In this document: positions 16,888-45,067 of the stretch, one piece after another
Layout of the letters: the number at the start of each line of letters is the position of its first letter
Numbering within the stretch: position 1 is the stretch's first letter
NCBI GenBank assembly: GCA_963681965.1
Contig: OY820579.1
Coordinates: forward strand, 1,920,001-1,984,000
Length of the DNA: 64,000 nt
Source of the DNA: a bacterium
GTDB lineage: Bacteria > Electryoneota > JAOADG01
Direction: 5' to 3'
The notes under the pieces: generated by a model
What the model was told of the DNA's origin: nothing
The model's input: the letters and a program-made list of their open reading frames with translations, nothing else
The model's database searches: none
Made by a program: the position numbers and the translations under genes

Positions 16888-17604
16888 TTATCGAACGAGT
16901 TCGATTCGATGCATCTTTACGCCTTGTGGTGTTTCCAATCGAAGAAAATATTGACCCGAGGCGAGTGAATGAAACCAATCCCCTAGTGCAATTTCCTGAG
17001 CACCGGAACTATAATGGGATGATCGTTCGGCAATTTTGCGACCGATTACATCGAACATTGTCAGTTTAACATTCCCTTCGTGGGGAAGTGCAAAACTAAC
17101 TTTGGTGGATGAATTGAATGGATTCGGGTAAACCCGACTGATTTGATATCCCACTGGAATATCTTTTTGGTCGACACCAACTACCGAATAAGTTGTACAA
17201 ACCACTCGAATTAGTTCTGCAGTACCGTGAATACTGATGTCCATTGCCGCTTGACCGGTGCCAACTGCAGTCGGGAATACGTCAAGTGTTAGTGAATCGA
17301 TAACTCGGGGGAATAATGAATCGTATGCCTCGGTGATGGTGGGAGGGTAGCAACCACTTCCGATGCACATGCCGAGTTCCCATTCAGTCGGGATATTAAT
17401 CCGGACAGTTTGAACAGTAATCTCGATCGGATCGTCAACCAAAGAAGAGACATCCATGACAAATTGTGCCGCGTCGCCATTCGGAACAACCCATTGCACA
17501 GTTGATCGAGGCGTGACTTGAAATGATTGTGCATAAACCGGAAGCGACATGACTGCAGTCAACAGCAAAATCGAAATCAAACCGGTACTAAATAATCTCT
17601 TCAT
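16888..17604 (-). CDS. Secreted protein with T9SS type A-like C-terminal sorting domain
   Basis: Sec signal (..PVYA/Q), one beta-rich domain, C-terminal VYPNPFNSST..FDVIGRKIA..LASGQYFLRL. Confidence 0.85.
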   Translation of the reverse strand: MKRLFSTGLISILLLTAVMSLPVYAQSFQVTPRSTVQWVVPNGDAAQFVMDVSSLVDDPIEITVQTVRINIPTEWELGMCIGSGCYPPTITEAYDSLFPRVIDSLTLDVFPTAVGTGQAAMDISIHGTAELIRVVCTTYSVVGVDQKDIPVGYQISRVYPNPFNSSTKVSFALPHEGNVKLTMFDVIGRKIAERSSHYSSGAQEIALGDWFHSLASGQYFLRLETPQGVKMHRIELVR

Positions 17605-17658
17605 CGTTGCTCCTAAATTCCTTTACACTTGTTCTAAATCCAAGATTCTATCAAACAG

Positions 17659-23375: not shown

Positions 23376-25418
23376 ATGGACGAATCAATTCCTCGGGCAA
23401 TTCTTCACAAGTTCAAGCGATATATCGTTGGACCTGCCCGTGATTTAACTGACCGCTCGATTTTTCACAAAATCTCGTTGATCGCCTTTTTTGCCTGGGT
23501 CGGTCTTGGAGCGGATGGTCTCTCCTCGTCCTGTTATGGTCCTGAAGAAATTTTCCGGGTCCTGCATCTTCACCCCTACCTCGCTATCTTTGTCGGTATT
23601 GGCACTGCGATCACGATTTTTATCATTAGTGCCAGTTATTCCCAACTGATCGAATTGTTTCCATACGGTGGTGGCGGCTATCTCGTTGCCAGCAAATTGC
23701 TCTCCCCGAAAGTTGGGATGATTGCCGGCTGCTCACTCCTAATCGATTATATCTTAACGATTGCATTATCGGTCGCCAGTGGTGTCGATGCCTTCTTCAG
23801 CATGTTACCACCGGAATGGCAGGCTTTCAAGCTGTCGATTGCTCTGACCGGTGTCTTTATGCTGATTGTGCTCAATTTGCGTGGCGTGAAAGAATCGGTT
23901 TTACCATTGCTACCTATCTTTATAATTTTTCTTTTAACTCACACATTTGTAATTATATACGGATTTTTCTCACACGCTCTGGATTTCCCGCAATTAGTCC
24001 AAAATACGCAATCGGATTTAAGTTCATCTTTCAATGAATTGGGTATCGTCGGTGCTCTGCTATTAATGATGAAAGCCTACTCGATGGGTGCCGGTACGTA
24101 TACCGGTATCGAAGCTGTCAGTAACGGGATGCCGATCTTGCGGGAACCGAAGATTCAAACCGCTCATCGCACGATGCGCTATATGTCGATATCGTTGGCA
24201 TTTACTGCGATGGGTTTGATCACAGCCTATGCATTGTTCCAAGTGTCGCCCAGCGATACCAAGACGTTGAATGCGGTGTTGCTGGATAGTGTTACAAGCG
24301 CTTGGTCGCCACTGGTGAGTTCGACATTTGTCATTATAACGCTGATTAGCGAAACCGCTATGCTATTTGTCGCAGCGCAGACTGGTTTCATCGGTGGTCC
24401 GGCAGTTCTGGCAAATATGGCGATCGATCGCTGGTTTCCCACCAAATTTGCGTCTTTAAGTGACCGTTTCGTCACTCATAACGGCATCATCATGATGGGT
24501 TTAGCTGCGATTGTGATATTGCTGATCAGCCTTGGTTCGGTCCATTATCTCGTAATTCTCTATTCTATCAACGTATTTATTACGTTCACCTTGTCTCAAC
24601 TTGGGATGGTGAAACACTGGTGGAATGTGAAATCGACTGAACCGAAGTGGTTGTGGAAGTTGTCGATCAACGGTGTTGGTCTGCTATTAACAACCTTTAT
24701 TCTAATTTCAGTCGTAATCTTGAAATTTGGTGAAGGCGGTTGGATCACGTTGATCATCACTGGAAGTTTAGTTGCCTTCGTGAGTTTGATTCGGAAGCAA
24801 TACGAGATTACCAGTAAGCGATTGACGCATCTGGATGCGTTAGTCGAAGCGACTGAAATGGCGCCGATGTCGAGCTTAAGTGCTCGCAATGGTAAGAGCG
24901 AGATTTCGTTCGACCCCACGGGTAAGACTGCTGTAATCTTGGTCAGCGGTTTCAATGGTCCCGGTCTTCATACCTTTTTCACAGTGTTGCGTCAATTTAA
25001 AGATGTATTCAAGAACTTTGTCTTTATATGTGTCGGTCAAATCGATGCCGGGAACTTTAAAGGTATTGAAGAACTGGATAATTTGAAGATCCACGTCAAA
25101 GAAGAAGTTCAACGGTATGAAAAACTAGCTTTATCCCACGGGATTTACGCCAAGGGAATAGATTTAATCGGTACCGATGTCGTGGAAGCGATCACAGAAA
25201 AAGCGCCGGAAATTATGGAAACATACAAGAATGCGATCTTTTTCGGCACTCAAACGATCTTTACCGACGAATTAGTCTTTTCACGGTGGCTTCACAACTA
25301 CACTCTTTTCTCGCTGCAGCAAAGATTGAGTTATCACGGTATTCCGCTGCTGATTATTCCCATTCGGACCTATAAGGAAGAAGACGATCTTCGCCGTGGT
25401 GTTCCGAGTATTGTATAA
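23376..25418 (+). CDS. APC-superfamily permease, KimA/KUP-like potassium transporter (copy 1)
   Basis: ADGLSSSCYGPEE (D-x6-Y), GGGGYLVAS, LIDYILT, NLRGVKES, TGIEAVSNG; about 12 TM helices plus soluble C-terminal domain. Confidence 0.85.
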   Translation: MDESIPRAILHKFKRYIVGPARDLTDRSIFHKISLIAFFAWVGLGADGLSSSCYGPEEIFRVLHLHPYLAIFVGIGTAITIFIISASYSQLIELFPYGGGGYLVASKLLSPKVGMIAGCSLLIDYILTIALSVASGVDAFFSMLPPEWQAFKLSIALTGVFMLIVLNLRGVKESVLPLLPIFIIFLLTHTFVIIYGFFSHALDFPQLVQNTQSDLSSSFNELGIVGALLLMMKAYSMGAGTYTGIEAVSNGMPILREPKIQTAHRTMRYMSISLAFTAMGLITAYALFQVSPSDTKTLNAVLLDSVTSAWSPLVSSTFVIITLISETAMLFVAAQTGFIGGPAVLANMAIDRWFPTKFASLSDRFVTHNGIIMMGLAAIVILLISLGSVHYLVILYSINVFITFTLSQLGMVKHWWNVKSTEPKWLWKLSINGVGLLLTTFILISVVILKFGEGGWITLIITGSLVAFVSLIRKQYEITSKRLTHLDALVEATEMAPMSSLSARNGKSEISFDPTGKTAVILVSGFNGPGLHTFFTVLRQFKDVFKNFVFICVGQIDAGNFKGIEELDNLKIHVKEEVQRYEKLALSHGIYAKGIDLIGTDVVEAITEKAPEIMETYKNAIFFGTQTIFTDELVFSRWLHNYTLFSLQQRLSYHGIPLLIIPIRTYKEEDDLRRGVPSIV

Positions 25419-25447: not shown

Positions 25448-27475
25448 GTGTCTCCAACTATTTTCCATCGTGTCAAGCGGGTGGTTTTGGGTCCTGCACG
25501 TGATGTCACCGACCGGTCGATCTTCCATAAACTCTCGTTGATTGCGTTTTTCGCGTGGGTCGGTCTCGGTGCCGACGGTCTCTCTTCTTCGTGTTACGGT
25601 CCCGAAGAAATGTTCCGGGTGCTCCATCTACATCCGTTTCTCGCAGTATTTGTTGCGATTGGAACGGCAATCACCATCTTCACGATTAGTGCCAGCTATT
25701 CGCAAATCATTTCGCTTTTCCCCTCGGGTGGCGGTGGCTACTTGGTTGCAAGTAAGCTACTATCCCCGAAAGTGGGGATGGTCTCCGGTTGTACGCTGCT
25801 GATTGATTATATTTTGACGATTGCGTTATCGGTGGCTAGTGGTATCGATGCTTTATTCAGTCTGTTTCCCCCACAATATCATGTTTACAAACTGCCGCTA
25901 ATCATGGTAGGAATACTGTTCTTGATTTTGCTCAATCTGCGTGGTGTAAAAGAATCAGTCATTACATTACTGCCGATCTTTCTTGCCTTTGTTGTTACTC
26001 ATTTGATCGTGATAGTCTATGTATTCGGAGTTCATTCGCTTGATTTACCGACATTAGTACAAAATACCAGTTCCGATATGACGGTTTCATTTAAGGAATT
26101 GGGTTTCTTCGGCGCGCTGGCATTGATGATGAAGGCATATTCGATGGGTGCCGGTACCTATACGGGAATTGAAGCGGTCAGCAACGGTATGCCGATTCTA
26201 CGCGAACCAAAGATCCAAACGGCACACCGGACGATGCGCTATATGTCGATTTCGTTGGCTTTCACTGCTGTTGGATTGATTACTGCCTATGCTCTATACG
26301 AACTGAAACCGAGTGATACCCAAACGTTGAATGCCGTGTTATTTGAGCGAATCACCGCGAATTGGACGGCGCCGTTTGGATCGATCTTTGTTTGGATAAC
26401 GTTGCTTAGCGAAACGGCATTGCTCTTTGTAGCTGCACAAACAGGTTTTCTCGACGGTCCTCGGGTTCTGGCAAATATGGCATTGGATAAATGGTTTCCT
26501 ACGAAATTTGCCTCGCTTAGCGATCGGTTTGTCACTCACAATGGCATCATCATGATGGGTGTCGCTGCCGGGATTGTGCTGGCGATCAGTCTGGGTTCGG
26601 TACATTATTTGGTTGTGTTGTATTCGATCAACGTCTTCATCACATTTTCGTTGTCCCAATTGGGAATGGTCAGACATTGGTGGCAAGTGCGGAATAGTGA
26701 ACCGAAGTGGCGACGCAAACTTATCGTGAATGGTGTCGGTTTAATGATGACTTCGTTTATTTTAATTTCGGTAATCGTGCTCAAATTCGAGGAAGGCGGT
26801 TGGATCACGTTGCTGATAACGGGGAGTCTCGTTGCTTTTGTCTCGCTCATTCAATGGCAGTACAAAGTAACTTCGCAGCGGTTGAAACATCTGGATACAT
26901 TGGTGGAAGCAACCGAATTACAGCCGGCAATCAATGAGAGAAAATCGCAGCCGGTAAATACCGAATTCGATCCGTTTGCTCCCACTGCCGTCATTTTGGT
27001 CAGTGGTTTCAATGGTCCTGGACTTCACACATTCTTCACTGTACTTCGGCGATTTAAAAATGTATACAAAAACTTCGTGTTCGTTTCTGTCGGGTCAGTC
27101 GATGCTGGAAATTTCAAAGGAATCGAAGAGATCGACCATCTAACGGAACACGTAAAAACCGAAGTTGATCGATATGTTCGGCTGGCGCAAACGCATGGAT
27201 TTTATGCGGAATCTTTTCCGTTAATTGGAACCGATGTCGTTCAAACGATCATGGAAAATTCGCCGCAAATTATGAAAAAATTCCCGAATGCAATTTTCTT
27301 CGGTACCCAGATTATTTTTACGGAAGAAATTGTCTTCTCGCGCTGGCTACATAATTACACACTATTCGCCATCCAACGTAAATTGAGTTACGACGGTATA
27401 CCGATGCTGGTCATCCCCATTCGCACCTACCGGGAAGCCGACGATTTACAAAAGGGCGCCGTTACGGCGCGTTAA
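25448..27475 (+). CDS. APC-superfamily permease, KimA/KUP-like potassium transporter (copy 2)
   Basis: Same motifs, full-length colinear paralog of 23376-25418; GTG start. Confidence 0.85.
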   Translation: MSPTIFHRVKRVVLGPARDVTDRSIFHKLSLIAFFAWVGLGADGLSSSCYGPEEMFRVLHLHPFLAVFVAIGTAITIFTISASYSQIISLFPSGGGGYLVASKLLSPKVGMVSGCTLLIDYILTIALSVASGIDALFSLFPPQYHVYKLPLIMVGILFLILLNLRGVKESVITLLPIFLAFVVTHLIVIVYVFGVHSLDLPTLVQNTSSDMTVSFKELGFFGALALMMKAYSMGAGTYTGIEAVSNGMPILREPKIQTAHRTMRYMSISLAFTAVGLITAYALYELKPSDTQTLNAVLFERITANWTAPFGSIFVWITLLSETALLFVAAQTGFLDGPRVLANMALDKWFPTKFASLSDRFVTHNGIIMMGVAAGIVLAISLGSVHYLVVLYSINVFITFSLSQLGMVRHWWQVRNSEPKWRRKLIVNGVGLMMTSFILISVIVLKFEEGGWITLLITGSLVAFVSLIQWQYKVTSQRLKHLDTLVEATELQPAINERKSQPVNTEFDPFAPTAVILVSGFNGPGLHTFFTVLRRFKNVYKNFVFVSVGSVDAGNFKGIEEIDHLTEHVKTEVDRYVRLAQTHGFYAESFPLIGTDVVQTIMENSPQIMKKFPNAIFFGTQIIFTEEIVFSRWLHNYTLFAIQRKLSYDGIPMLVIPIRTYREADDLQKGAVTAR

Positions 27476-27730: not shown

Positions 27731-27766
27731 CAAACAAAACAGGGGCGAATGTGATTTTCGCCCCTG
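27731..27766 (-). terminator. Intrinsic terminator between convergent genes
   Basis: CAGGGGCGAA/TTCGCCCCTG stem with T-rich tail on the minus strand. Confidence 0.75.
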
Positions 27767-27790
27767 CTCGATTTAATACTACATGACTTG

Positions 27791-30520
27791 TTACTTCAGG
27801 TAAACTGCTTTACGGGTGGTGATGAAATTCGGTGACTTCATCGTGATGAAGTAAATCCCCGCTGAAAGATTATTCGTCTCTCCCGACCACACAATTGAAT
27901 GTATTCCGGCATCGAAATCCCGATCGCACAGTGTCGAAACCTGTCGTCCGGCGGCATCGAATACCGTTACTTGAACGCGGCTCGTTTGCGGTACGGCAAA
28001 TCGAATCGTAGTCGAAGCATTGAATGGATTCGGTGCAATTGCATGCAAAGCAAATTTCGTGGGAATTGTAGAAATTGCTTGATCGGTGGGATTTTCAGAC
28101 TCGATTCTACCGATCGACTTCGGATCCTCGCCCTTATCACCCTTCGAATCTGCAACATCGTTGTTGATGTAAGTGTCGATTGGCGCAAGGAACGGAGGAG
28201 TCAGGTCAAACGGATCCGGAGTGAATATACTGTAAATCGAAACTACTTGGTTAGTGGTATTTAATCCGGCAAATTTGCCAACAATTGCCCACCGATCGCC
28301 GTCCTGACCATCCGACTGCCAAGTAATCACTCGCCGAATTTCAAAGATATCGTTTTGTGAAAAATTGGTATAATAATTATGATCCCATCCCTGCCACCGG
28401 GTTGGATTCGGATAATTTGGAGCGATCGCGACTACTGGACTGGTTTGAACATATGTTTCGGGTTGTGAATTTACGATTACTGGAGTAGTAAGTGCCGTAC
28501 CTAAAACCGGCGACCAAACCTCAACAACATTTTTATCGCGTTCACTGGTTCCATACTGGTCATACACGACACAATATCGAGTACCGGAAAAAGCGATTTG
28601 AGGATAGGCGTAGTATCGATTTCGCTCTCCTGTGAAAAAGAAATCTGTGTTGATGGTATTGATATCAAGAATTGTATTGTCGGCAACCCTCACATTACCG
28701 TCGTTATATGCAATTCCGATTTGATTGTGAGTGCCGGAACAGATCGATGGATGAACATCGAAATCGTGAATATTCCAGAGATGCGTAATTCGATTCGAGT
28801 TGCCCACTTCAAAATGATGCGATCTGAGTAATTTCACATCGATTGTAGGAGGATCCTGACGTGAAGAGACGAACGTTATTGCAAAAAATCCTTCTCCCTC
28901 AACGAAACAGACATCCGGATCCATGGAGTTGGATTCAGAGACGATAGTGGGTGGAAATTCTTCAAACGGTAACCTCCCGACTGCGCGAATTTGATCGTCT
29001 GCTTGCCAGGTGATACAATATCCACCGTCATTCGAGAATGCTACTGATGGTTTGTACAAGACACGTCGAGATGGATCGGGAAATTCTGCGCTGACAACGA
29101 CATCATTTTCGGTTAATTCGTATGTTTTATAAGTTGGATTCCACCGTAACGATGATCGCTTGATCACATTGAAAAATGTGTCGTCGATATGTTCACGCCA
29201 AACCACAATTATACTCCCGTCAACCGGATTGACAGCGACATCGGGTGCATCGCATACTGTGGTAGGTCGGGGATCGTTGATTTTGAATTCTCCGGATTCG
29301 GCAAGACCCATCGGGTTGTACCACCGACCGCGAAGATAATTGGTTTGACTTAACCAGACTACAACAAAGCTCCCATCGAGTGGATTGCAGGCGATTGCAG
29401 ATTGTTCTTGAGAACCGGAAGTAGTGTAGTTGTTGACTTTCAATTCTGTCGGATTCGCGAATCCAGCGGTTTGAAGTCGACCAAAGGACGGGGCATATCC
29501 TCCTACGAATTTACCGATGCTATCGGCTGGGAAGTTGGTGAATCCTTGATGATATAAACTATCGACGAAATTCAAATGTTGACGTCGCTGCATTTCATTG
29601 ACACTCATGTTGATCACGGCTGCCTGCGCATTGGCAATATTGTTAATCGTATAGGATTTGTAAGACATCGCATGCTCGCCGAAACGAGGATTACCAAGGA
29701 CCTTTCTTACGCCCCAAAGTGTATCGCTTTCCTGAACCAGCGCATTTAGCGAATTGTCCGTGATGCCCGGCGCAATTTCGGATACGGTACGAGCTAACGC
29801 CCAACTTGCAGCAGTTGGGTGCATCGTCGAAACCGCATTGTAGTAATTTCTCGCGATCAGGTAGTTGCGGATCAAGTTGACACCGTAATACTCGGAATCA
29901 ATTGCATGAGATCGCGCATGATTGTAGCCTGTTGGATAACTGAAATTGTACCACTCCGTGTATTCGCGATTGTTGACGATGTTAGTTGCAGAGATGCCGG
30001 TACCCACTCGGTCTCGAATGGCACTCATTGAAGCTGTATCGATCGTCCCGTTGTGTTCGAATCGAAAATAATTACCCATAACGTTGTATTCGTAGGGTGC
30101 TGGACCGGGAACATTAGCTGGACCTGAAGAGCCACGACGTGCATGGGCATATGCAACGCGACGATTGGCAACGCGAACCGAATTCATTACAGTATCGACC
30201 ATAGCTGAATCGAATGCAGTGGCGATATCGGTTGCAGAACGGTATGTGAATGGTAAAAATTGACGAGGACCGCCAGCCCAACCATTGGGACAATTTCTCT
30301 GCCATACATAGGGCGGATTCATCGAGCTATCTTTCTTAGCTATTTGCCGCCATGCTTTCCAAACATTGTCGTAGGTATACAGATAATTTGAACCGAGGGG
30401 TGTACTCGTTGAAGAGACAAAGCCCATCATTCGACAGGCAGTCGCGCTATTTGCAATGATAACGACAAGAATCAGAGTAAGCAGAAGAATTGCACGGAAG
30501 GTAAATCGTTTACCAAACAT
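27791..30520 (-). CDS. Secreted class II glutamine amidotransferase-like (Ntn hydrolase) protein with T9SS type A-like C-terminal domain
   Basis: Signal peptide then CRMMGF; YAHARRGSSG, FEHNGTI, IDSEYY (GATase_4/EgtC-like motifs); beta-rich middle; APNPFNAST..LSAGIYF..RKAVYLK. Confidence 0.8.
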   Translation of the reverse strand: MFGKRFTFRAILLLTLILVVIIANSATACRMMGFVSSTSTPLGSNYLYTYDNVWKAWRQIAKKDSSMNPPYVWQRNCPNGWAGGPRQFLPFTYRSATDIATAFDSAMVDTVMNSVRVANRRVAYAHARRGSSGPANVPGPAPYEYNVMGNYFRFEHNGTIDTASMSAIRDRVGTGISATNIVNNREYTEWYNFSYPTGYNHARSHAIDSEYYGVNLIRNYLIARNYYNAVSTMHPTAASWALARTVSEIAPGITDNSLNALVQESDTLWGVRKVLGNPRFGEHAMSYKSYTINNIANAQAAVINMSVNEMQRRQHLNFVDSLYHQGFTNFPADSIGKFVGGYAPSFGRLQTAGFANPTELKVNNYTTSGSQEQSAIACNPLDGSFVVVWLSQTNYLRGRWYNPMGLAESGEFKINDPRPTTVCDAPDVAVNPVDGSIIVVWREHIDDTFFNVIKRSSLRWNPTYKTYELTENDVVVSAEFPDPSRRVLYKPSVAFSNDGGYCITWQADDQIRAVGRLPFEEFPPTIVSESNSMDPDVCFVEGEGFFAITFVSSRQDPPTIDVKLLRSHHFEVGNSNRITHLWNIHDFDVHPSICSGTHNQIGIAYNDGNVRVADNTILDINTINTDFFFTGERNRYYAYPQIAFSGTRYCVVYDQYGTSERDKNVVEVWSPVLGTALTTPVIVNSQPETYVQTSPVVAIAPNYPNPTRWQGWDHNYYTNFSQNDIFEIRRVITWQSDGQDGDRWAIVGKFAGLNTTNQVVSIYSIFTPDPFDLTPPFLAPIDTYINNDVADSKGDKGEDPKSIGRIESENPTDQAISTIPTKFALHAIAPNPFNASTTIRFAVPQTSRVQVTVFDAAGRQVSTLCDRDFDAGIHSIVWSGETNNLSAGIYFITMKSPNFITTRKAVYLK

Positions 30521-30980
30521 AATTTCTCCTTGTTGAGTTTTCTAGAATTTGATTGGATAAGTTTCAGTCGCGAGATAAAGAAGAGCAGTTATCGAGAGAA
30601 AAATGGCTTAGGAATATCAAGGCTTGAAGTAATGAAATGATAACACCGTAAATTCTACAATAGATAGACGAGATTATCATTGAATTTAATTATCTCGATA
30701 ATGGATCGCGACGAACTAATAATAAACGATGATGTCTCTAAAAACAAACTAAAGTTAAAGCTTATTTATTATTGTATTGATATTATCTCTCGCTGTAAAC
30801 AGTAAAATCCGTATCTTTACGTCTTTATTAATTAAAATATAAATACTCTAAACAGAGGTGTGATTTATGTTATTATAAGATCGACGATTAAGTTTCGTCC
30901 CGAATCTTCCTCAGATTGCGGTCTAATTAGCACCAATCCAGTACAATTTTCAACCGAATATTCGATTTGATGTATGATTC

Positions 30981-34324: not shown

Positions 34325-37300
34325 TCATTTCCTTTGAATCTCATTCGTCGTTCCATTCGATATTCTACCGTCCAATCGTTTCAGCATTTCACTTTCGTGA
34401 ATCGTTTCTCGCGCATGATCGCGTTGCAGTTCGCGAATGATGCGGTCGAAACTGTCGGTACTTCCTGACAAGGCTTTTACTTGATAAAAAATGGAAGAGT
34501 TGGTCTGCGCCACATTCAAATCAGTAAAGAACGTGGTGCCTGCTCCCACTACTTGACCAAGATAAGCCCACTCATCAGTATAGAGATTTTTATGAAACAC
34601 AAGATAACGATCGACTGTCGTTGCCAATCCATTGGCTGAAGTATCGACCCGATCCCAATTGAGCTGAACATCATAACCCGAAAGGGTGATCGAGAGATTG
34701 CCCGGAGCTGCCGGTTCAAATCCGGCGATTCCGTTGCCGGATAAAGGAATTGCGATTGGATTGTACGGTGCTTCGAAAGCTATTCGTAACGTATCGTGAT
34801 AGTTTCTCGCGGAATCGGGGTAGAATCTGACCCAGAGCTGAAGTGTGTCGCTGGCAGCAGTCGTGGAATCGGTATCGAGTACTCGCCAGCGGAACGGAGT
34901 AGTATTCAGTGTCGTCATCGTAAGATATCGCACCGAAACTGGATTGCGATTGGCGATCTTTACCAACACTGAATCGCTGGTCAGCGGAGCGCAATCGGCG
35001 AAATTGATTTCTGTCCGAGAGCAATATAAATCGAGCAGCAATCCGAGTGTCGAAGCCGATACTGTGTCGGAATTGGCTGTCACATCGCCATTCGCATTGC
35101 GAGCTGTAGATATAAACCGGTAGTTCGTGTTATTCGCCAATCCATTCACCGAGACGGTAGCACCCCACGTAGCAAGATTCTGCCAGACCATTGTATCGCT
35201 GAGCACTCCGGTGGATTGGACATATTGGTTGGTGTTCAGTTCGTGAACAGCGTAGGTAACGGTTGCAGGATTATCGACCCCATTCAATACCAGTGGTATC
35301 GTTGTCAATGTCGGTGGGTTGTACGTCAGCACCGGCACCGCTGCATTCGTCCACCCGTCGGCAGTGGCAAAGCCAGTAGTTATTCCCTGTGAACTTTGTT
35401 TGAAGATACGATACCTATAATGCGTTCCCGGGGTCACGGAGGTGTCGGTATACTGAGTGCTATTGACGGGTGCCGTTGTTAGGTTTGTAAATTCTACTCC
35501 ATTCGTCGACCGCATGATCGGAAAGCCAATTTCATCCGCGCAATTATCCATCCAGTGAATTGTCATCGAGTGGCTGGTAATTGCTGTAACCGGTGTTGCT
35601 GCTGTCCCGGGATAACATGGTGGTGGAATAAAATTTGTATTGAATGACCACACCGGACTGGCAATAGACCAGATGGAATTATTGGCGACAACATACCAAT
35701 AGTATTGTGTCATTGATGACAGAATTTCACTCGGAGTATAATAGAGCGAGTTAATTCCAGCTACTACTCTGGTGGTTGGTGGGTTCGATGTTCCGAGATA
35801 GACATCGTATCCAGTTGCATTGGCATCGCCGGTCCAGCTCAACGTTGCGTTAATCGGGACACCGGTTGCACCGTTATCGGGAATGGGTGTGGTCGGCGCA
35901 TTCAGCTTGAAGAAATGATAGGTTCGTAGTGAATCCGGAACGGGAGGACCGTACTGGAGATAACCGTTCGCTCCATTCGTATCCTGAATGGCAGCCGCGG
36001 CAAACACCGTTTGTGTCGTGGAGCTACGGGAACCGTAATTCACATCGATATTGCCATTCTCATATACGACAACCTGAGCCGCAATCGGACCGACACCACC
36101 ATACATGGCGAAGTTAGTATACGTAATGACCAAGCGGGTCGGGGCAGTCAGGTTTTCATACTTGACTGTAGTCGAAGCAACCGACATATCGTAATTCCAG
36201 AAGTAGACACCGGCGGGATAACCACCAGTTAGCGGGAACGATGCGCTGGAGTAATTATTTGGATTTTGTCCGCCAAACTGAATTCGTCCGTTACTTCCAG
36301 CATACCACGTCGTATAAGTACGACCGTAAAAAGTGAATGGGAAACCGATATTGTATGGACCGGCAAAACCGTCGTCGGTGTTTGTCCAGCCACTAACCAT
36401 GGTTGCTGAGGCTGACGGGGTAATCCAATTGTAGCCCGTACCGTTGCTGGCGACCATTCGGTAACCATAAGCATCCGGACCGGCATGGTACGGATCGACA
36501 GTTGTTACCGATACTGTATCGCTATAATTGGTTTCGACCGATGCACCGTTTCGTGCCTTCACTGCGAACCGGTAATTGGTGCCTAGCGATAAACCGGCTA
36601 CGGTTACCATTCCCCACGTTGCAAGATTTTGCCAGACCGGCGTTGCACCCAGAATACCTGTAGATTGGAGATATTGATTGGTGTTGAGTTCGAATATACT
36701 GTACGTAACAGCCGCAGAGTTATCGACGCCATTTATTACCAGTGGAACTGTAGTCAATGTAGGTGTGTTGTTTGTCAGAATAGGAACCGTCGCATTCGTC
36801 CAGCCATCGGCGGTAGCGTAGCCAGTTGTTATCCCTGAACTTCCTTGTGCATGTATCTGGTACCAATAGCGCGTGCCCGGAATTTGGGCAGTATCGGAAT
36901 ACTGAGTGCTGTTAGTTGGCGCGGTTGCAAGGTTTGAAAATTCTACTCCATCCGTCGAACGGAATATCGGAAAGCCGATTTCATTCGAACAATTGTCGAT
37001 CCAGTGAATTGTCATCGAATGGTTGGTGATTGACGTGACCGGTATATCAGAATTTCCGGGAAAGCACGGTAAAGAAAAATACGTGTCGAATGACCACACC
37101 GGTCCGGGAGCAGACCCATATAAATTATTGGAGGTGATATACCAATAATATTGCGTCATTGGTAACAAACTAGTACTCGGAGTATAATAGGGGGTATTTA
37201 ATCCCGTTGCCACTCGAGTGGTCGGTGGATTGGTCGTTCCCAGATAGATGTCATAGGTTATTGGTGTCATCCCGCAAGTAGGTGCAGTCCAACTAAAGGT

Positions 37301-40024
37301 CGCGTTTGTCACAATACCAGTGGAAAAATTCGGCGGATTTGGATTGGACGGAAGACTCGGAACAAGTGAAATGAATAGCCCCTCATCGGCACCGACATCG
37401 GGCGTTGACAAACTGCGAGTTTCACCGTCGATATCGGTAGTCACGAATGTCGGTGTACCGTCATTCTCAACCCGAGAGTAGCACGGGTTCGAACGGATGT
37501 GAGGGTTGTATGGCCACGACGTCGAGTTTTCAAATGTCGGATCGCCCGAAGTAGAAGCTAGGTCGCCGTTTGGCGTGTAGACTGTTTGCCATGCCGAAAG
37601 CGTCGATCGATAAGCGCTCCCTTTGTATCCGATATAACCACCGACTGTATTCGGGATGTAAAAATTATTATAGTCTGACATCCAGTTTGCGGCGTAAGTA
37701 CAGGGGTTGTACATGCCGACGTGAAACGGCGTGGTCGAAGTCTGTGAACCGAGGTTCGCAAAAATATTATTCTTGCATGTATCGTTGTATGCATAATTCG
37801 ACGTATAGTACAGACATGCGGAAGAGAAGTTCTGCGTACCCGTCTGATTTAACATGATCGTGTTGTGTATCAGCGACGGATAAAAAAATCCACAATAGAT
37901 ACCGTACGTGTAATACGAAGCCGTAGTCGTACCGGAATACGTCTGCTGCAGATTGTAGACCATGTTGTTGTAAATGCGCTGATGTCCATAGCTACTTGAA
38001 AAGTATGAGTAGATACCGTAAATAATCGTGTAGCCACTGGTATTTAAAGCAGTGAAATCGTAAATACGGTTGTTGTACACTAATAACGGAGAAGCAGTAC
38101 CACCGGTATACGGAGAGTAATACAGATACATACCGTACATCGTGTAGCTGAAGCTGTACGTCTTCATGTTTTTAATATCGATATCGTGAACTGACAGACC
38201 ATTCTGGTAGTAAGCGAGCACCCCATATGAGTTACCAGCTCCGCCAATCGTATCATTCACGGCGGCACCGATCGTGAAGCGGTTCAAATTGTCGAAACCA
38301 GCAACATCGCTGCCAATTTCATTCCCCATATCTGGGTAGGAAGAATATGAGTAGCAGTACACGCCACAACGAACCTTCGAGATCTTCAGGTTGAGATAGC
38401 GATTGTAACTCTGACTTCCCAAAGCGGAGGCTGGATAGATCGACGTATTGTAATATTGATACACACCGTAAGTTGGATAGGATGAGTTGATTCGCATTTG
38501 AATCGTCGCGTTCTTGATGGTGTTATACCGCGCGCCAAGAGTCGCGGCGCTATTGTTCAGCCAGTAACCGTAGTACAGCGGATTAGTACCGGTGCTGACA
38601 TCGGTCACGCTGATGCCGTCAAATGTCAGATATTGCGCACCTGTGATCTTCACACCGTATTGGTTTGAACCGGTAACAGTGGGACTCAGAGTGACGGATC
38701 CGCCAGTCGCTCGAAAAACGACTGGGTTGGAAGGACTCATACCGGGATAAGCACCTGTAAAAGTTACTTGTTCAGTGTAGGTTCCGGGAGAAACGTTAAA
38801 CGTTACTCCACCGGTACCCGAACCAGTCGTATAAAGCGCTAAAATGGCGGCAGCGAATGACTGATAGTTATCACCACCGGTCGGTAATGCCGGATTGATC
38901 GTCTTGGTGCCGGTTAGCGCCGCGATCGTGTTAAACGTCCAGATCGGGGAAGTGTTGGTTGCAGGCGACGTGCCATGCGCAACGACTTTCCAATAATAGA
39001 CGTTGCCGGGGGTAATCGGCATGATAAAAGAGGTCGCAGTCGAACCTGATAGTTGCTGTGCTGCAACTGCACCACTCGATACGTCGGCTTGCACCGTCGA
39101 GCAATAGAGGTCGTAGTTAGCGGTGCAAGAACCACCAACCCAAGTCAAGGTTTGGATTTCTGTAGTGACACCGATGGTCCCGTTTGCCGGGCTAAATTGA
39201 GTTGCAGTGTTGCAGGGCGGAACAAATAAAATTGCTCGACCGGAAACCGGGCATGCAGTTGAATACTGATATTGCGAAGCGATAGTACGAGTGTCGTTTT
39301 GGATGCCGATTGTACTGGTATTCACGGTGGAGGTATTGTATTGTAGCAGGATATTCCCACTCGAATAGAGAATTGCCTCGAATATTTCACCGCTATCGGT
39401 ATACCATTGCACGATGAACGTGTTGGCATCGTATTGCTGATATTTGATGTATCTGCCGGTAGTGGTTACATAGGAGTCGCGATAGAGTACTGCAATCAAG
39501 CTTTGCGGCATGGTGGTAGCCGGCATCGAATACTGCGCATAATAGCCACTCGTTAAGTTGGCAAATGCACTGTTAAACGAGAGCCAGCCGTCGGTACTCA
39601 TCGTGACCGAGGTAAAATTCATGCCGTAAAATGGGAACGTAAATCCCAATGGTACCATGGCGGAGGTTACATCGTCACCGGTCGGACCGGTGGTACCGGT
39701 TGTGCTAATGTCGATCCAGTTATATGTCGGTCCTGGAGGATCTAGCTGAGCATTGTTGTCAATCCAGGTATACCCGTATCCATCTGGAGCAGCACTTACG
39801 GCGTCGGTGGATGCAGGGATAACGGTACTATTGGATCCTGTATTTGAAAACGGTGTGTCCGACTTTGTCGCAGCAAAAGCATCATGATCATTCACGAAGT
39901 GCTGTGAGATTGGTCGGAACCAAGTTGCATCAAATGAATTGTCGAAAAATTGCCCGAGCGCAGTGAGAAGAATGGGAATAGCGGCAATACAGAATAATAC
40001 TCGTACGAGCCGGGGTATCGACAT
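34325..40024 (-). CDS. Giant secreted multidomain surface protein (FN3-like repeats, probable beta-helix, Ig-like C-terminus)
   Basis: N-terminal hydrophobic leader; Thr/Tyr/Ser-rich; two PDxYGY domains; YGIY/NNxIY beta-helix-like region ending DIDGETR..PDVGADE; duplicated FN3-like block. Confidence 0.8.
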   Translation of the reverse strand: MSIPRLVRVLFCIAAIPILLTALGQFFDNSFDATWFRPISQHFVNDHDAFAATKSDTPFSNTGSNSTVIPASTDAVSAAPDGYGYTWIDNNAQLDPPGPTYNWIDISTTGTTGPTGDDVTSAMVPLGFTFPFYGMNFTSVTMSTDGWLSFNSAFANLTSGYYAQYSMPATTMPQSLIAVLYRDSYVTTTGRYIKYQQYDANTFIVQWYTDSGEIFEAILYSSGNILLQYNTSTVNTSTIGIQNDTRTIASQYQYSTACPVSGRAILFVPPCNTATQFSPANGTIGVTTEIQTLTWVGGSCTANYDLYCSTVQADVSSGAVAAQQLSGSTATSFIMPITPGNVYYWKVVAHGTSPATNTSPIWTFNTIAALTGTKTINPALPTGGDNYQSFAAAILALYTTGSGTGGVTFNVSPGTYTEQVTFTGAYPGMSPSNPVVFRATGGSVTLSPTVTGSNQYGVKITGAQYLTFDGISVTDVSTGTNPLYYGYWLNNSAATLGARYNTIKNATIQMRINSSYPTYGVYQYYNTSIYPASALGSQSYNRYLNLKISKVRCGVYCYSYSSYPDMGNEIGSDVAGFDNLNRFTIGAAVNDTIGGAGNSYGVLAYYQNGLSVHDIDIKNMKTYSFSYTMYGMYLYYSPYTGGTASPLLVYNNRIYDFTALNTSGYTIIYGIYSYFSSSYGHQRIYNNMVYNLQQTYSGTTTASYYTYGIYCGFFYPSLIHNTIMLNQTGTQNFSSACLYYTSNYAYNDTCKNNIFANLGSQTSTTPFHVGMYNPCTYAANWMSDYNNFYIPNTVGGYIGYKGSAYRSTLSAWQTVYTPNGDLASTSGDPTFENSTSWPYNPHIRSNPCYSRVENDGTPTFVTTDIDGETRSLSTPDVGADEGLFISLVPSLPSNPNPPNFSTGIVTNATFSWTAPTCGMTPITYDIYLGTTNPPTTRVATGLNTPYYTPSTSLLPMTQYYWYITSNNLYGSAPGPVWSFDTYFSLPCFPGNSDIPVTSITNHSMTIHWIDNCSNEIGFPIFRSTDGVEFSNLATAPTNSTQYSDTAQIPGTRYWYQIHAQGSSGITTGYATADGWTNATVPILTNNTPTLTTVPLVINGVDNSAAVTYSIFELNTNQYLQSTGILGATPVWQNLATWGMVTVAGLSLGTNYRFAVKARNGASVETNYSDTVSVTTVDPYHAGPDAYGYRMVASNGTGYNWITPSASATMVSGWTNTDDGFAGPYNIGFPFTFYGRTYTTWYAGSNGRIQFGGQNPNNYSSASFPLTGGYPAGVYFWNYDMSVASTTVKYENLTAPTRLVITYTNFAMYGGVGPIAAQVVVYENGNIDVNYGSRSSTTQTVFAAAAIQDTNGANGYLQYGPPVPDSLRTYHFFKLNAPTTPIPDNGATGVPINATLSWTGDANATGYDVYLGTSNPPTTRVVAGINSLYYTPSEILSSMTQYYWYVVANNSIWSIASPVWSFNTNFIPPPCYPGTAATPVTAITSHSMTIHWMDNCADEIGFPIMRSTNGVEFTNLTTAPVNSTQYTDTSVTPGTHYRYRIFKQSSQGITTGFATADGWTNAAVPVLTYNPPTLTTIPLVLNGVDNPATVTYAVHELNTNQYVQSTGVLSDTMVWQNLATWGATVSVNGLANNTNYRFISTARNANGDVTANSDTVSASTLGLLLDLYCSRTEINFADCAPLTSDSVLVKIANRNPVSVRYLTMTTLNTTPFRWRVLDTDSTTAASDTLQLWVRFYPDSARNYHDTLRIAFEAPYNPIAIPLSGNGIAGFEPAAPGNLSITLSGYDVQLNWDRVDTSANGLATTVDRYLVFHKNLYTDEWAYLGQVVGAGTTFFTDLNVAQTNSSIFYQVKALSGSTDSFDRIIRELQRDHARETIHESEMLKRLDGRISNGTTNEIQRK
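35050..37350 (-). repeat. Internal duplication of about 850 bp (about 35050-35900 and 36500-37350)
   Basis: HSMTIHW.DNC..EIGFPI.RST.GVEF.NL.TAP.NSTQY and ELNTNQY.QSTG..VWQNLATWG occur twice, with visible DNA similarity. Confidence 0.85.
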
Positions 40025-40255: not shown

Positions 40256-42529
40256 CTACTTTTTTTGAGTATTATTTTTATAATAGGATAAAATCTCAGC
40301 ATATCGCGGAAACTTCGATTTCATCACGTTATCAAAAACAACTCGATATGGCTCATCAAAATCAGGCTCAGATGGAAAACTATCAGTTACAATACAGTTT
40401 TTCATTAACGACTCATTAATTTTTTTCTCTACGTTAAAATTAGTGTAAAGCGGGTCAACATAGTAAAATGGAGGAAATCTCCCTATTCCAGATAAAGGTT
40501 CTTTTCCAACTTCTCTATAAACTGAGTATTGAATGTACCTTAAGTTGCTTTTTACAAACATATTAGTATAATAATTCGTGTCACTTACTTGAAAATTGAC
40601 GATAAAACTATCAACGTTTGCTCGATAAAATATATTTTTATCATATCTGATTCTATCCATCCACATTTTATTCAATATATAGAGAGAATCAAAAGTGCTT
40701 GAAATGATCTGACTGTTATTATCGATCACAAAATTACTAGTTGATAACAATTTGAAAATCGATGAATATATCCTTGAATTTCTAATTAATATTGAATCAT
40801 AGAGTCCAAGACTATAGTATTTTGGTAAGTTTTCATTCACTGACGTTTCTCGTCGAGAATATCGAGTTTCTAATAGCTGATCATCTTTGAAGATAATAGT
40901 ATTCATCGGTTTGTTATCTAACAGAGTTAAGTATGTAAGATCACATTTTGTGAAGTGTGACCTAGATATAGTTCGTGGGATCGTAGCATCGTATAAAGAA
41001 ACATCATATAGATTTAGAGAATCAAAGTTTGCACTGCCAAAATTTGCATTTCTAAAATACGAATTTGAGATATTTGCACCATATAAGTCAGCATTATAAA
41101 AATTACTTCTGTCCCCATTAGAGTTACTGAGTATCATAAATCGTAAATTTCGATTATTGAAGTTGCGACCATGGATTCTTAGAATATTTTTGTATGTAGA
41201 ATCGAGCCTGTCCCAATCTGTTGGTACTACTGATAAATCTTCTCCATCAATATTCAAATACAAAAACTCGAAATTCGATTTTTTGCTTCCGTATATTGCA
41301 ACATACGTGAATGATATCATGAAAATCAGCACCATTGCTGGTAGACAATACATTATTGTTGTACTTAATGTAGAAGAAAGTTTTTGACTTAAATTACGTT
41401 TAGTCCTTCGAATGAAAATAATACTTACATAAACAGCTAATATATAAGAAAGCATATGTATCATTGCAGGTAGAAACTTGTGTGTTTTGATGTAAGTACC
41501 CCAAACAAAAATTATAATTACTGGTACTATCCACCAATTTAACAAGTGTATAAGTAACCACTGAAGTTTGGCAAGAGTTGAATTGAAATATCCTGGGAAA
41601 AATTTTACTAACACATTGAACAATTTAATTTTTCGGTATCTTGCCTCTGTATTTGGAGTGACTTTCTTTTTAAGATTTCTCTTAACAAGCCATGGGATAT
41701 GTGAATTAATCAATTCATTTGTTAACCAAGGGGTAATTTTTTGATTAACTCGTAATCCATCTGGAAAAACAGCTGGTAATTGACCAATTTTTTCCATAAC
41801 CTTTATCAGATGAATCTGAGAATAGATGTAAAAAAAAACGTATAAAATAATACCCCAGACTAGCGCAAAAGAATACGGAACTGAGCTCGTATGGAGAGGT
41901 GATAATGGTGTTCTATCATCTATAAGTAAAGAAATCGGAGTAGATGTTGCCATAGTGAGGATTAAATAACCGCTTGCAGCAAGAACGATTTGATATAAAT
42001 GTTTGGCATTCTTAGTTGTTTCAGTTACGCTATTTAAACCGCTCTCGAATTTGCCAATAGTATCTGGTAACTTTGCATTGGTTAGATTAGCACGCGCTAG
42101 TTGATGCGCTGTTAGAGTCGTCAGTTCACTTAAATCAACTTCGGTGAGATCGGCATCATGAAATGTCGCGTTGGTAACGTCAGCGGAGTCGGTTTGGATT
42201 TCTTCATTTGGTCGTAATTCTCGATTAGGAATTGGTTTTTTAAAAAAAACGGCTTTTCTTAAATTGGCATGGTTAAATTTTGTGCCTTTAAGAATAGCGG
42301 TATTTTCTCCAACTCTTGAATGAATGTTATCTTTAAGAATAGGTCGAGGGTTAACCGAAAAGTTTGCACCTTCTAAATTTACCTCTGAGAAGTCCAAACC
42401 TGACAGATCCAAATCACTAAAATCGTGATAACTTAAGTCAGCTCTAGTTCCTGGTTTTCTATTCGTTTTCAACATGAGGTGATGCTGATCCAGTATTACT
42501 TTAATTTCTTCAAGCGTCTTTCTTTCCAT
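40256..42529 (-). CDS. Pentapeptide-repeat membrane protein (AT-rich gene)
   Basis: ADLSY/ANLRK/ADLTE/ANLTN repeats, central TM helices, second pentapeptide block (ADLYG, ANFGS). Confidence 0.82.
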   Translation of the reverse strand: MERKTLEEIKVILDQHHLMLKTNRKPGTRADLSYHDFSDLDLSGLDFSEVNLEGANFSVNPRPILKDNIHSRVGENTAILKGTKFNHANLRKAVFFKKPIPNRELRPNEEIQTDSADVTNATFHDADLTEVDLSELTTLTAHQLARANLTNAKLPDTIGKFESGLNSVTETTKNAKHLYQIVLAASGYLILTMATSTPISLLIDDRTPLSPLHTSSVPYSFALVWGIILYVFFYIYSQIHLIKVMEKIGQLPAVFPDGLRVNQKITPWLTNELINSHIPWLVKRNLKKKVTPNTEARYRKIKLFNVLVKFFPGYFNSTLAKLQWLLIHLLNWWIVPVIIIFVWGTYIKTHKFLPAMIHMLSYILAVYVSIIFIRRTKRNLSQKLSSTLSTTIMYCLPAMVLIFMISFTYVAIYGSKKSNFEFLYLNIDGEDLSVVPTDWDRLDSTYKNILRIHGRNFNNRNLRFMILSNSNGDRSNFYNADLYGANISNSYFRNANFGSANFDSLNLYDVSLYDATIPRTISRSHFTKCDLTYLTLLDNKPMNTIIFKDDQLLETRYSRRETSVNENLPKYYSLGLYDSILIRNSRIYSSIFKLLSTSNFVIDNNSQIISSTFDSLYILNKMWMDRIRYDKNIFYRANVDSFIVNFQVSDTNYYTNMFVKSNLRYIQYSVYREVGKEPLSGIGRFPPFYYVDPLYTNFNVEKKINESLMKNCIVTDSFPSEPDFDEPYRVVFDNVMKSKFPRYAEILSYYKNNTQKK

Positions 42530-42653
42530 TTTGGCTCCAATTTGCAATCATTTGTAGTATTCAAACTTCTTAATAATACAAATTAAAGTGTATTATAGTC
42601 AATGAAATGTTATGAGAAATCGACTATTTATTCTCGTGAGAGAGTTATTCAAA

Positions 42654-44053: not shown

Positions 44054-45067
44054 GATACAATCCTTTCAACGCGACGAGTTGCGCCGCGAACTACGCAGTG
44101 TGAGTCAAGCAAGAATGCTCTAAAATTAAATCTTAATCTGCAATCAGTGTGATTGCGAGTGAGGAGGGGTGGGATTAGGTCTCAGCCTTAATCCACTCCA
44201 TAAAGATGAGGCAACGGATGAGTTTTAACATGGATTACTTTCGTTGTGATTCGTTCGTCCATCCACAATATATCACTGAAAATCGATGAATAAAAATCGG
44301 AAACCTAAGCTAATTCGAAATACACAATTGTTTCGGGAAATATGATTTTCCTCGATAGTAACTCGAAATAATTAGAGCGAACACCGGAAATGGTGTCTTG
44401 AATTTTGAGAATCCAACCATTACTTGACTCAATCGCAGTTGAACAAGAAAAAAAGCTAATGTGATCGATTATTGCTGATAGCTTATGTAAGAATAAACTA
44501 TAATAACTATATATAATAGATTATTAAAACAATGTGTAAGAAAACTCTAATGTGCTACGTATCACATAATAATTAAGTCGATCATCTATATCGGGTTGTC
44601 CGTTAATATTCTGAATGAGTATGTTGATTTAAGCACCACTATCACTAGATCTTCTTTATTTATAACCAGTTCGCTTACATGCGCTGTAAATCTTCGAGGT
44701 CTCCTCTTTTTAAGTGCAATTATCTTATTGATTTGTGAATTATGAGTTACCGAGAGTGCTCACTCGTAGCAGAGACGATGGCATCTGAATCGATCGATCG
44801 GGTCGATGTGTGGAGACATCCATTGTTACTACGTGTGACAGCGATTTCGAAGGTAAGTAAGTCATTATACTCGAGATAAATTTAAAGTAAGCACTTAAAA
44901 AAAAGGTTAAGGAGAGAACTACTCTTGTCGAAGAGTTGAGTAGAGGCCTTCGATTCAGCTTATAAATTCGCTTCAGCTTTTTTCTTAAAGGTTCCGCTCA
45001 GAAGCCTAATCAAGAGAGTTGGTCAATTGAACGGCCGTTGTCTGAGTGCAGCAATAATGGAGGATTA

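Follow-up and report, generated by a model that had tools for sequence, protein, structure and literature searches.

Class II glutamine amidotransferase (GATase) domains, which have an N-terminal nucleophile (Ntn) hydrolase fold, are textbook cytoplasmic modules. Here we describe a bacterial gene whose product appears to be an exported member of this group. The gene occupies positions 27791..30520 on the reverse strand of a window of 64,000 nucleotides (contig OY820579.1, positions 1,920,001 to 1,984,000; assembly GCA_963681965.1, phylum Electryoneota) and is an open reading frame (ORF) of 909 amino acids, with the ATG at 30520 as the earliest start codon of the open frame. A preliminary description of the window had read the product as a secreted Ntn hydrolase whose catalytic Cys would be unmasked by signal peptidase; our analysis confirms this observation, and sequence comparison and structure prediction support the interpretation. 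Judged from these, the 909-aa protein belongs to an exported and divergent branch of the class II GATase Ntn fold that is fused to a propeller, with its predicted nucleophile at the signal peptidase site. Unmasking of an Ntn Cys by signal peptidase is already known from the choloylglycine hydrolase (CBAH) family, so the value of the present case lies in the family and the architecture, which are the new part, rather than in the mechanism.

The closest described systems share some of these features. EgtC, the gamma-glutamyl amidohydrolase of ergothioneine metabolism (PDB 4zfj, 4zfk, and 4zfl), is a stand-alone class II GATase-type Ntn hydrolase that hydrolyzes a gamma-glutamyl amide without ammonia transfer, and it has the N-terminal Cys and the HxR, HNG, and D(S/T)E motifs in common with the 909-aa protein. 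It differs in being cytoplasmic, with 227 to 230 residues in the solved chains, and in lacking a signal peptide, a propeller, and a sorting domain. The Cys of EgtC is exposed by removal of Met. No egtA, egtB, egtD, or egtE gene lies beside the 909-aa gene, in a search confined to its neighbors. Closest by sequence profile are the YafJ-type proteins (GATase_4) PA1307 (1te5) and SPO2029 (3mdn), whose fold is also close; their solved chains are single-domain proteins of ~250 to 275 residues, whereas the 909-aa protein is exported and has large insertions in the domain. A preprint (10.1101/2023.02.02.526638) describes yeast Dug3p as a class II GATase that degrades a gamma-glutamyl peptide, glutathione, and is active only with its partner Dug2p. 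That system is cytoplasmic, eukaryotic, and composed of two polypeptides, and its likeness to the 909-aa protein is an analogy only. Gamma-glutamyltranspeptidase (GGT) is a periplasmic or extracellular Ntn hydrolase of gamma-glutamyl compounds that belongs to a different Ntn family and obtains its Thr nucleophile by internal autoproteolysis.

The nearest parallel for the position of the nucleophile is the CBAH family (bile salt hydrolase/penicillin V acylase; PF02275). These are Cys-Ntn hydrolases, and in those that are exported the signal peptide runs right up to the nucleophile Cys, although the Ntn family and the substrates are different. Two CBAH proteins from the same phylum have this layout, ...TTPAAA/CTLFVIDD (locus L039, genome G028) and ...ASSGIA/CTLFVIND (locus L040, genome G050), with the profile starting at position 1. 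In the periplasmic penicillin V acylases of Gram-negative bacteria the Cys also directly follows the signal peptide, a point that we could not confirm in the literature. It was not found in the accessible portions of PMC5474475, PMC13081902, and PMC8228234, nor in PMC8066178 and 10.1101/788646. The premise that enzymes of the class II type are normally cytoplasmic needs softening, since exported relatives exist and the signal-Cys layout is also found in the CBAH Ntn hydrolases of the phylum. Our literature search for exported or type IX secretion system (T9SS)-secreted class II GATase-like enzymes found none.

Predicted fold and homology of the N-terminal domain

The AlphaFold model of the mature domain (Cys29 to residue 345; 28 sequences) has a predicted local distance difference test score (pLDDT) of 75 and a predicted template modeling score (pTM) of 0.79, with a beta-strand from residue 2. 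The top Foldseek matches listed for the model are class II GATase domains only (GFAT-1, GlmS, EgtC, PA1307, and PurF). With VIA-align, the model was aligned to PurF (1ecb; Z 19.4, root-mean-square deviation 3.1, 226 residues), the GlmS glutaminase domain (1xff; Z 18.4), EgtC (4zfk; Z 18.4, root-mean-square deviation 2.7, 204 residues), 1te5 (Z 17.0), and 3mdn (Z 16.3), the aligned length ranging over class II GATases from 197 to 230 residues, whereas other Ntn folds (such as HslV and taspase) reached only Z 5.9. The PurF, GlmS, and EgtC alignments begin at model residue 1, i.e., Cys29, which is placed opposite residue 1 in both PurF and GlmS and opposite residue 2 in EgtC. The preliminary description had staked its interpretation on an Ntn sandwich, and this four-layer alpha-beta-beta-alpha fold is the one to which the structural matches point. 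At 317 residues, the domain is longer than the ~220 to 240 residues aligned in canonical domains, with large insertions of ~80 to 100 residues.

Two alignments were used for sequence comparison, a full-length alignment of 10 sequences (A1) and an N-domain alignment of 15 sequences (A3) that served as the family profile. Among solved structures, the A3 profile matched 3MDN over almost the whole length (E 3.4e-16, positions 58-324) and 1TE5 (E 1.9e-12); its match to PurF was weak (E 5e-3). An exhaustive phmmer search with the N-domain over 1.84 billion representative proteins returned just 24 proteins at E<=1e-3, the query included, and one of them is a spurious Sushi-repeat protein. PF13230 (GATase_4) was found at E<=0.01 in 16 of the 23 non-query matches, 13 of these being above the 23-bit cut-off, and 11 of the 23 have a T9SS tail. 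The nearest clusters in an ESM Atlas feature search are GATase_4/6 (score 0.90, 22 of 30 matches). Word-indexed searches added little: they found the protein itself only when residues 1-340 were used, were dominated by sorting-domain matches at ~10% coverage with the A1 profile, and yielded six proteins with the A3 profile. The sole phmmer match of the N-domain among PDB sequences, to the Sel1-like repeat protein 4bwr (E 0.019), was rejected as spurious. The domain is assigned to the class II Ntn-type GATase-like superfamily and not to the Pfam GATase_4 model, because the protein itself gives no match to PF13230.

Across 79 genomes of the phylum, the A3 profile has a match at E<=1e-5 in 14, including the genome of the 909-aa protein (G000), at 22 places in all; most are ORFs of 800 to 1600 residues, with up to five per genome. 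The own genome contains no paralog, no PF13230 match over the cut-off (best 14.3 bits, elsewhere in the genome), and no match to CBAH or Peptidase_C69. The source names of the relatives are "T9SS type A sorting domain-containing protein," "predicted glutamine amidotransferase," and "hypothetical protein." One relative, P0008, found in a same-phylum genome, is attributed by one source to Candidatus Electryonea clarkiae, a label that places the phylum in the FCB group.

The nucleophile column and the signal peptide junction

The N terminus of the 909-aa protein consists of the n-region MFGKRFTFR with three positive charges, a 14-residue h-region AILLLTLILVVIIA, and the c-region NSATA, followed by CRMMGF, so that Cys29 stands immediately after A-T-A, as had been noted in the preliminary description and is seen in the translated ORF. 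To place this junction in its family, 40 unique members were aligned, of which seven are gapped in the nucleophile column by a truncated start or misalignment. The remaining 33 have Cys (25 members), Ser (7), or Gly (1) in that column. Junction counts cover 23 Cys-type members, those in which a hydrophobic, signal-like segment lies shortly before the Cys. The -3/-1 rule of signal peptidase I (SPI) is satisfied immediately before the Cys in 20 of the 23; Ala occupies position -1 in 20, and bulky or polar residues (F, Y, H, N, W, Q, or E) are frequent at -2. The strict lipobox [LVI][ASTVI][GAS]C is found in none of the 23, among them the 909-aa protein with its A-T-A-C. All seven Ser-type members have the -3/-1 rule directly before the Ser, with an A-x-A or A-K-G end. 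From this comparison it is likely that SPI cuts before Cys29, and the unmasking of the Cys proposed in the preliminary description gains comparative support from the Cys-type junctions and from the Ser-type relatives, whose other catalytic residues are intact.

A different route to a free nucleophile evidently exists within the family. In P0014, P0018, and P0020, the Cys comes after H-E or H-S and at a considerable distance from the end of any signal peptide, which suggests that other exported GATase_4 proteins have a propeptide that is presumably removed by autoproteolysis. The same reaction could serve as a fallback for the 909-aa protein if the signal peptide were cut a few residues off. 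These three proteins differ in their other parts as well: P0018 begins like a lipoprotein and contains a linker rich in Asp and Thr, and PEGA/CarboxypepD_reg or fn3/MG2 domains stand at the C termini of P0014 and P0020.

Catalytic residues and natural variants

The AHAR, HNGT, and DSE motifs named in the preliminary description are all present (Table 1). H126, R128, H156, N157, G158, and D208 are invariant in both A1 and A3. We take Arg128 to be the binder of the substrate alpha-carboxylate, Asn157-Gly158 the oxyanion hole, and Asp208 the binder of the alpha-amino group, with roles as in GlmS, PurF, and EgtC. A residue table was compiled for 33 further family members, leaving out seven short A3 proteins that share the A3 invariants. 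The residue in the nucleophile column is Cys in 19 members, with the Arg, Asn-Gly, and Asp intact in 16; the other three are two fragments and one protein with an Asn-to-His change. It is Ser in seven members (loci L002, L005, L024, and L029; proteins P0010, P0013, and P0021), in which the Ser directly follows the signal end and the same residues are intact in all seven. To our knowledge, a Ser nucleophile has not been described on the class II GATase fold.

The single Gly-type member (L026, genome G077) does not have this set of residues intact and has H126D and R128N changes. P0023 has, by eye, an Asp at the nucleophile position, and in it HNG is replaced by HHG and DSE by NSA. Judging from these changes, both are likely pseudo-enzymes within the family. 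Loss of the nucleophile is accompanied by loss of other catalytic residues, as expected if the remaining members are working enzymes. The natural Cys and Ser variants, together with the degenerate members, form a ready experimental series for Ntn catalysis.

The conserved Arg, Asn-Gly, and Asp lead us to propose glutamine or a gamma-glutamyl-X compound with a free amino-acid end as the substrate. Gamma-glutamyl compounds would suit the conserved Arg and Asp better than the stem peptides of peptidoglycan, which had also been suggested, because in the latter the alpha-amino group of iso-glutamate is not free.

Predicted type IX secretion and domain architecture

The PNPFN sorting domain claimed for the C terminus is matched by both TIGR04183 (32.2 bits, cut-off 23) and PF18962 (30.9 bits, cut-off 27). 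The genome encodes the T9SS components SprA (700 bits summed) and PorU (619.5 bits, above its cut-off), and a PorV-like gene adjoins PorU (209 bits, below the 250-bit cut-off). With a hidden Markov model (HMM) built here, the T9SS sorting domain was found at E<=1e-3 in 231 ORFs of the 4.24-Mb genome, two of which lie in the window in addition to the 909-aa gene, at 44966-49576 (+) and 16888-17622 (-). A crude heuristic found a signal in 200 of the 231 cargo ORFs, and the residue predicted at +1 is Gln in 67 of them. This high count agrees with the Q-rule of signal peptidase I substrates in Bacteroidota. Cys is predicted at +1 in just one of the 200, the 909-aa protein. With its sorting domain, its Sec-type signal, and the machinery genes all present, the 909-aa protein has the sequence features of a T9SS type A cargo.

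Between the Ntn-like domain and the sorting domain, the preliminary description had seen a beta-rich region, which folds as a seven-bladed propeller in the AlphaFold (AF2) model. The model of residues 340-800 is all-beta, with a pLDDT of 70 and a pTM of 0.79. Its best Foldseek matches are the PLL/PHL lectins of Photorhabdus (E 2.4e-9, TMt 0.67), followed by sialidases, WD40 proteins, and the propeller of prolyl oligopeptidase. The propeller match is generic and assigns no function to the predicted structure. Dug2p contains a WD40 propeller, which would be a parallel to the fused propeller of the 909-aa protein.

Proposed mechanism and competing explanations

We think it fairly probable that the 909-aa protein is an exported class II GATase-type (Ntn) amidohydrolase of gamma-glutamyl or glutamine-type substrates, a T9SS cargo activated by SPI. 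In the precursor, Ala28 would be peptide-bonded to Cys29, blocking the alpha-amino group that acts as general base, and the enzyme would be inert in the cytoplasm. A cut by SPI after A-T-A would give a free N-terminal Cys29, and would take the place of the Met removal or autoproteolysis of the cytoplasmic relatives. Export would in this way probably switch the enzyme on. The folded protein would then cross the outer membrane by the T9SS through its sorting domain and be released or attached to the surface. There, Cys29 would attack a gamma-glutamyl or glutamine-type amide, with Asn157-Gly158 presumably forming the oxyanion hole and Arg128 and Asp208 presumably holding the glutamyl moiety by its free alpha-carboxylate and alpha-amino groups. 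Outside the cell, the protein would thus be a glutaminase or a hydrolase of gamma-glutamyl-X compounds. The fused propeller probably would bind or present the substrate or a surface polymer, although this step is speculation.

An exported T9SS branch with its own means of nucleophile exposure would widen what is known of this fold and bring a further class of enzymes into the secretomes of FCB-group bacteria. If the substrate were glutamine or gamma-glutamyl peptides, it would provide a route for extracellular nitrogen or sulfur scavenging distinct from GGT. A more elaborate version combines an SPI-activated zymogen lock that guards the cell's own glutamine and glutathione, a Cys/Ser switch of the nucleophile, and a Dug2p-like role of the propeller in activation or substrate presentation, and would make the protein a scavenger of extracellular glutathione or gamma-glutamyl peptides; we put it forward tentatively, as possible but not likely in its entirety.

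Several observations weigh against the SPI-activated amidohydrolase. For the 909-aa protein itself there is no Pfam match to GATase_4/6, with thresholds of E<=1 for the whole protein and E<=10 for the isolated N-domain (residues 1-340). The sorting domain was the only outcome of the family scans, which covered the whole protein with Pfam and NCBIfam and, with Pfam at E<=10, the two segments 1-340 and 341-810. Of the two HMM matches anticipated by the preliminary description, that to TIGR04183 was obtained and that to GATase_4/6 failed for the protein itself, though PF13230 is found in most of its phmmer relatives. With no direct Pfam match, the relation to GATases is visible solely via relatives, profiles, and fold. 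The best relative is 36 to 38% identical over ~190 residues, there is no close ortholog, and a genome of the same genus has a single distant relative of 1583 aa. No gene neighborhood is conserved across eight homolog loci (24 neighboring proteins), save for other T9SS cargo genes, and consequently genomic context gives no clue to the substrate. The cleavage site was derived from a crude heuristic and family comparison, and a permissive lipobox rule similar to PROSITE PS51257 is matched by 10 of the 23 Cys-type members, including the 909-aa protein. An extracellular free thiol is prone to oxidation. Finally, the near-invariant PxPHPF motif, which follows the Arg motif and contains the (H/Q)-P-(F/L) signature of the superfamily, reads PGPAPY in the 909-aa protein, with His141 replaced by Ala and Phe143 by Tyr; going by the sequence, the His141Ala change may leave the protein impaired or altered.

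The last of these points bears on whether the domain is active at all. The protein could be exported and cut as proposed and yet contain an inactive Ntn-like domain, which together with the lectin-like propeller would make it a surface binding or adhesion protein. Besides the 909-aa protein, the near-invariant His of the PxPHPF motif is missing, in the residue table, only in members that are degenerate (L026 and P0023) or fragmentary (L022), and degenerate members without a nucleophile do exist in the family. We nevertheless consider a pseudo-enzyme quite unlikely: Cys29, H126, R128, H156-N157-G158, and D208-S-E210 are all kept, whereas the clearly degenerate members have lost several such residues at once. 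The His is, moreover, not a universal catalytic residue. PurF, AsnB, and GltS have Gln at the site equivalent to His141.

The altered PxPHPF motif and the insertions that lengthen the N-domain would also be consistent with an active, SPI-unmasked Ntn hydrolase with a substrate other than a gamma-glutamyl compound, such as an acyl-amide, a peptide, or a polymer-linked amide, recognized with the aid of the propeller. Very different amides are cleaved across the Ntn families, for example by CBAH enzymes and acylases. In GlmS, PurF, and EgtC, however, an Arg and an Asp hold the free amino-acid end of glutamine, and both residues are invariant in the family of the 909-aa protein; a substrate of another kind seems distinctly unlikely.

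Highly improbable is a lipoprotein, in which signal peptidase II would make the cut, Cys29 would be diacylglyceryl-modified and N-acylated, and the Ntn-like domain would be a membrane-anchored binding module: although the permissive rule just mentioned is satisfied (K/R in the first seven residues, an uncharged stretch, [AGS]-C, Cys at 29), no Cys-type relative has the strict lipobox, seven relatives have the non-lipidatable Ser in the same column after an A-x-A-type end, conservation of the catalytic residues goes hand in hand with that of the nucleophile, the other 199 signal-bearing T9SS cargo proteins have no Cys at +1, and lipidation would deprive an Ntn hydrolase of the thiol and the alpha-amine on which it depends. 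Across the genome, the permissive rule is matched by 237 of 11,570 ORFs, which favor Gly at -1 (120 ORFs) and Leu at -3 (64), unlike A-T-A, with Ala at -1 in 48 and at -3 in 29; among the A-x-A-C matches are several proteins that clearly belong in the cytoplasm.

Locus and neighboring genes

The coordinates of the features of the 909-aa gene are given in Table 1. A strong terminator-like hairpin at 31011-30990 ends the upstream PAP2-family gene, and an AT-rich spacer of ~500 bp lies upstream of the 909-aa gene. Together with the hairpin 3' of the 909-aa gene, these elements make it look like a transcription unit of its own.

Table 1. Sequence features of the 909-aa gene and its predicted product, in window coordinates
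Feature	Position	Strand	Basis or remark
Shine-Dalgarno-like AAGGAG	30526..30531	-	5 nt 5' of the ATG; read from the sequence
Predicted Sec-type signal peptide, residues 1-28	30437..30520	-	Hydrophobicity and -3/-1 heuristic scan, cut after A28
Cys29 codon TGT, predicted N-terminal nucleophile of the mature protein	30434..30436	-	Family and structural alignments
Predicted class II GATase-like Ntn hydrolase domain, residues 29-345	29486..30436	-	AF2, Foldseek, VIA, family profile
H126-A-R128 motif (AHAR 125-128)	30137..30145	-	Invariant in A1 and A3
H156-N157-G158 (HNGT 156-159)	30047..30055	-	Invariant in A1 and A3
D208-S209-E210	29891..29899	-	D208 invariant in A1 and A3
Predicted seven-bladed beta-propeller, ~residues 359-764	28229..29446	-	AF2 model and Foldseek
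Acidic/Pro-rich linker, low confidence, ~residues 765-827	28040..28228	-	pLDDT <50 at model residues 430-461
T9SS type A C-terminal sorting domain with PNPFN, residues 828-909	27794..28039	-	TIGR04183, PF18962
Terminator-like hairpin, 13 pairs including 7 G-C	27737..27769	-	22 nt 3' of the stop codon; consensus scan only

The neighboring genes encode a PAP2 phosphatase, a malate dehydrogenase, a methyltransferase, and, in two adjacent genes convergent with the 909-aa gene, APC-type permeases; these neighbors give no hint of the function of the 909-aa ORF. On the convergent side, the ORFs at 23376-25418 (+) and 25448-27475 (+), of 680 and 675 aa, are adjacent and visibly similar. The first of them matches AA_permease_2 over residues 58-447, and its C-terminal ~230 residues are without a Pfam match. 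An ORF of 1899 aa at 34325-40024 (-) has weak fn3 and Ig-like matches only and is unmatched by the sorting-domain HMM. Between 40001 and 42000, the G+C content falls to 0.316, compared with ~0.46 elsewhere, and the ORF that overlaps this stretch, at 40256-42547 (-), encodes a pentapeptide-repeat protein of 763 aa.

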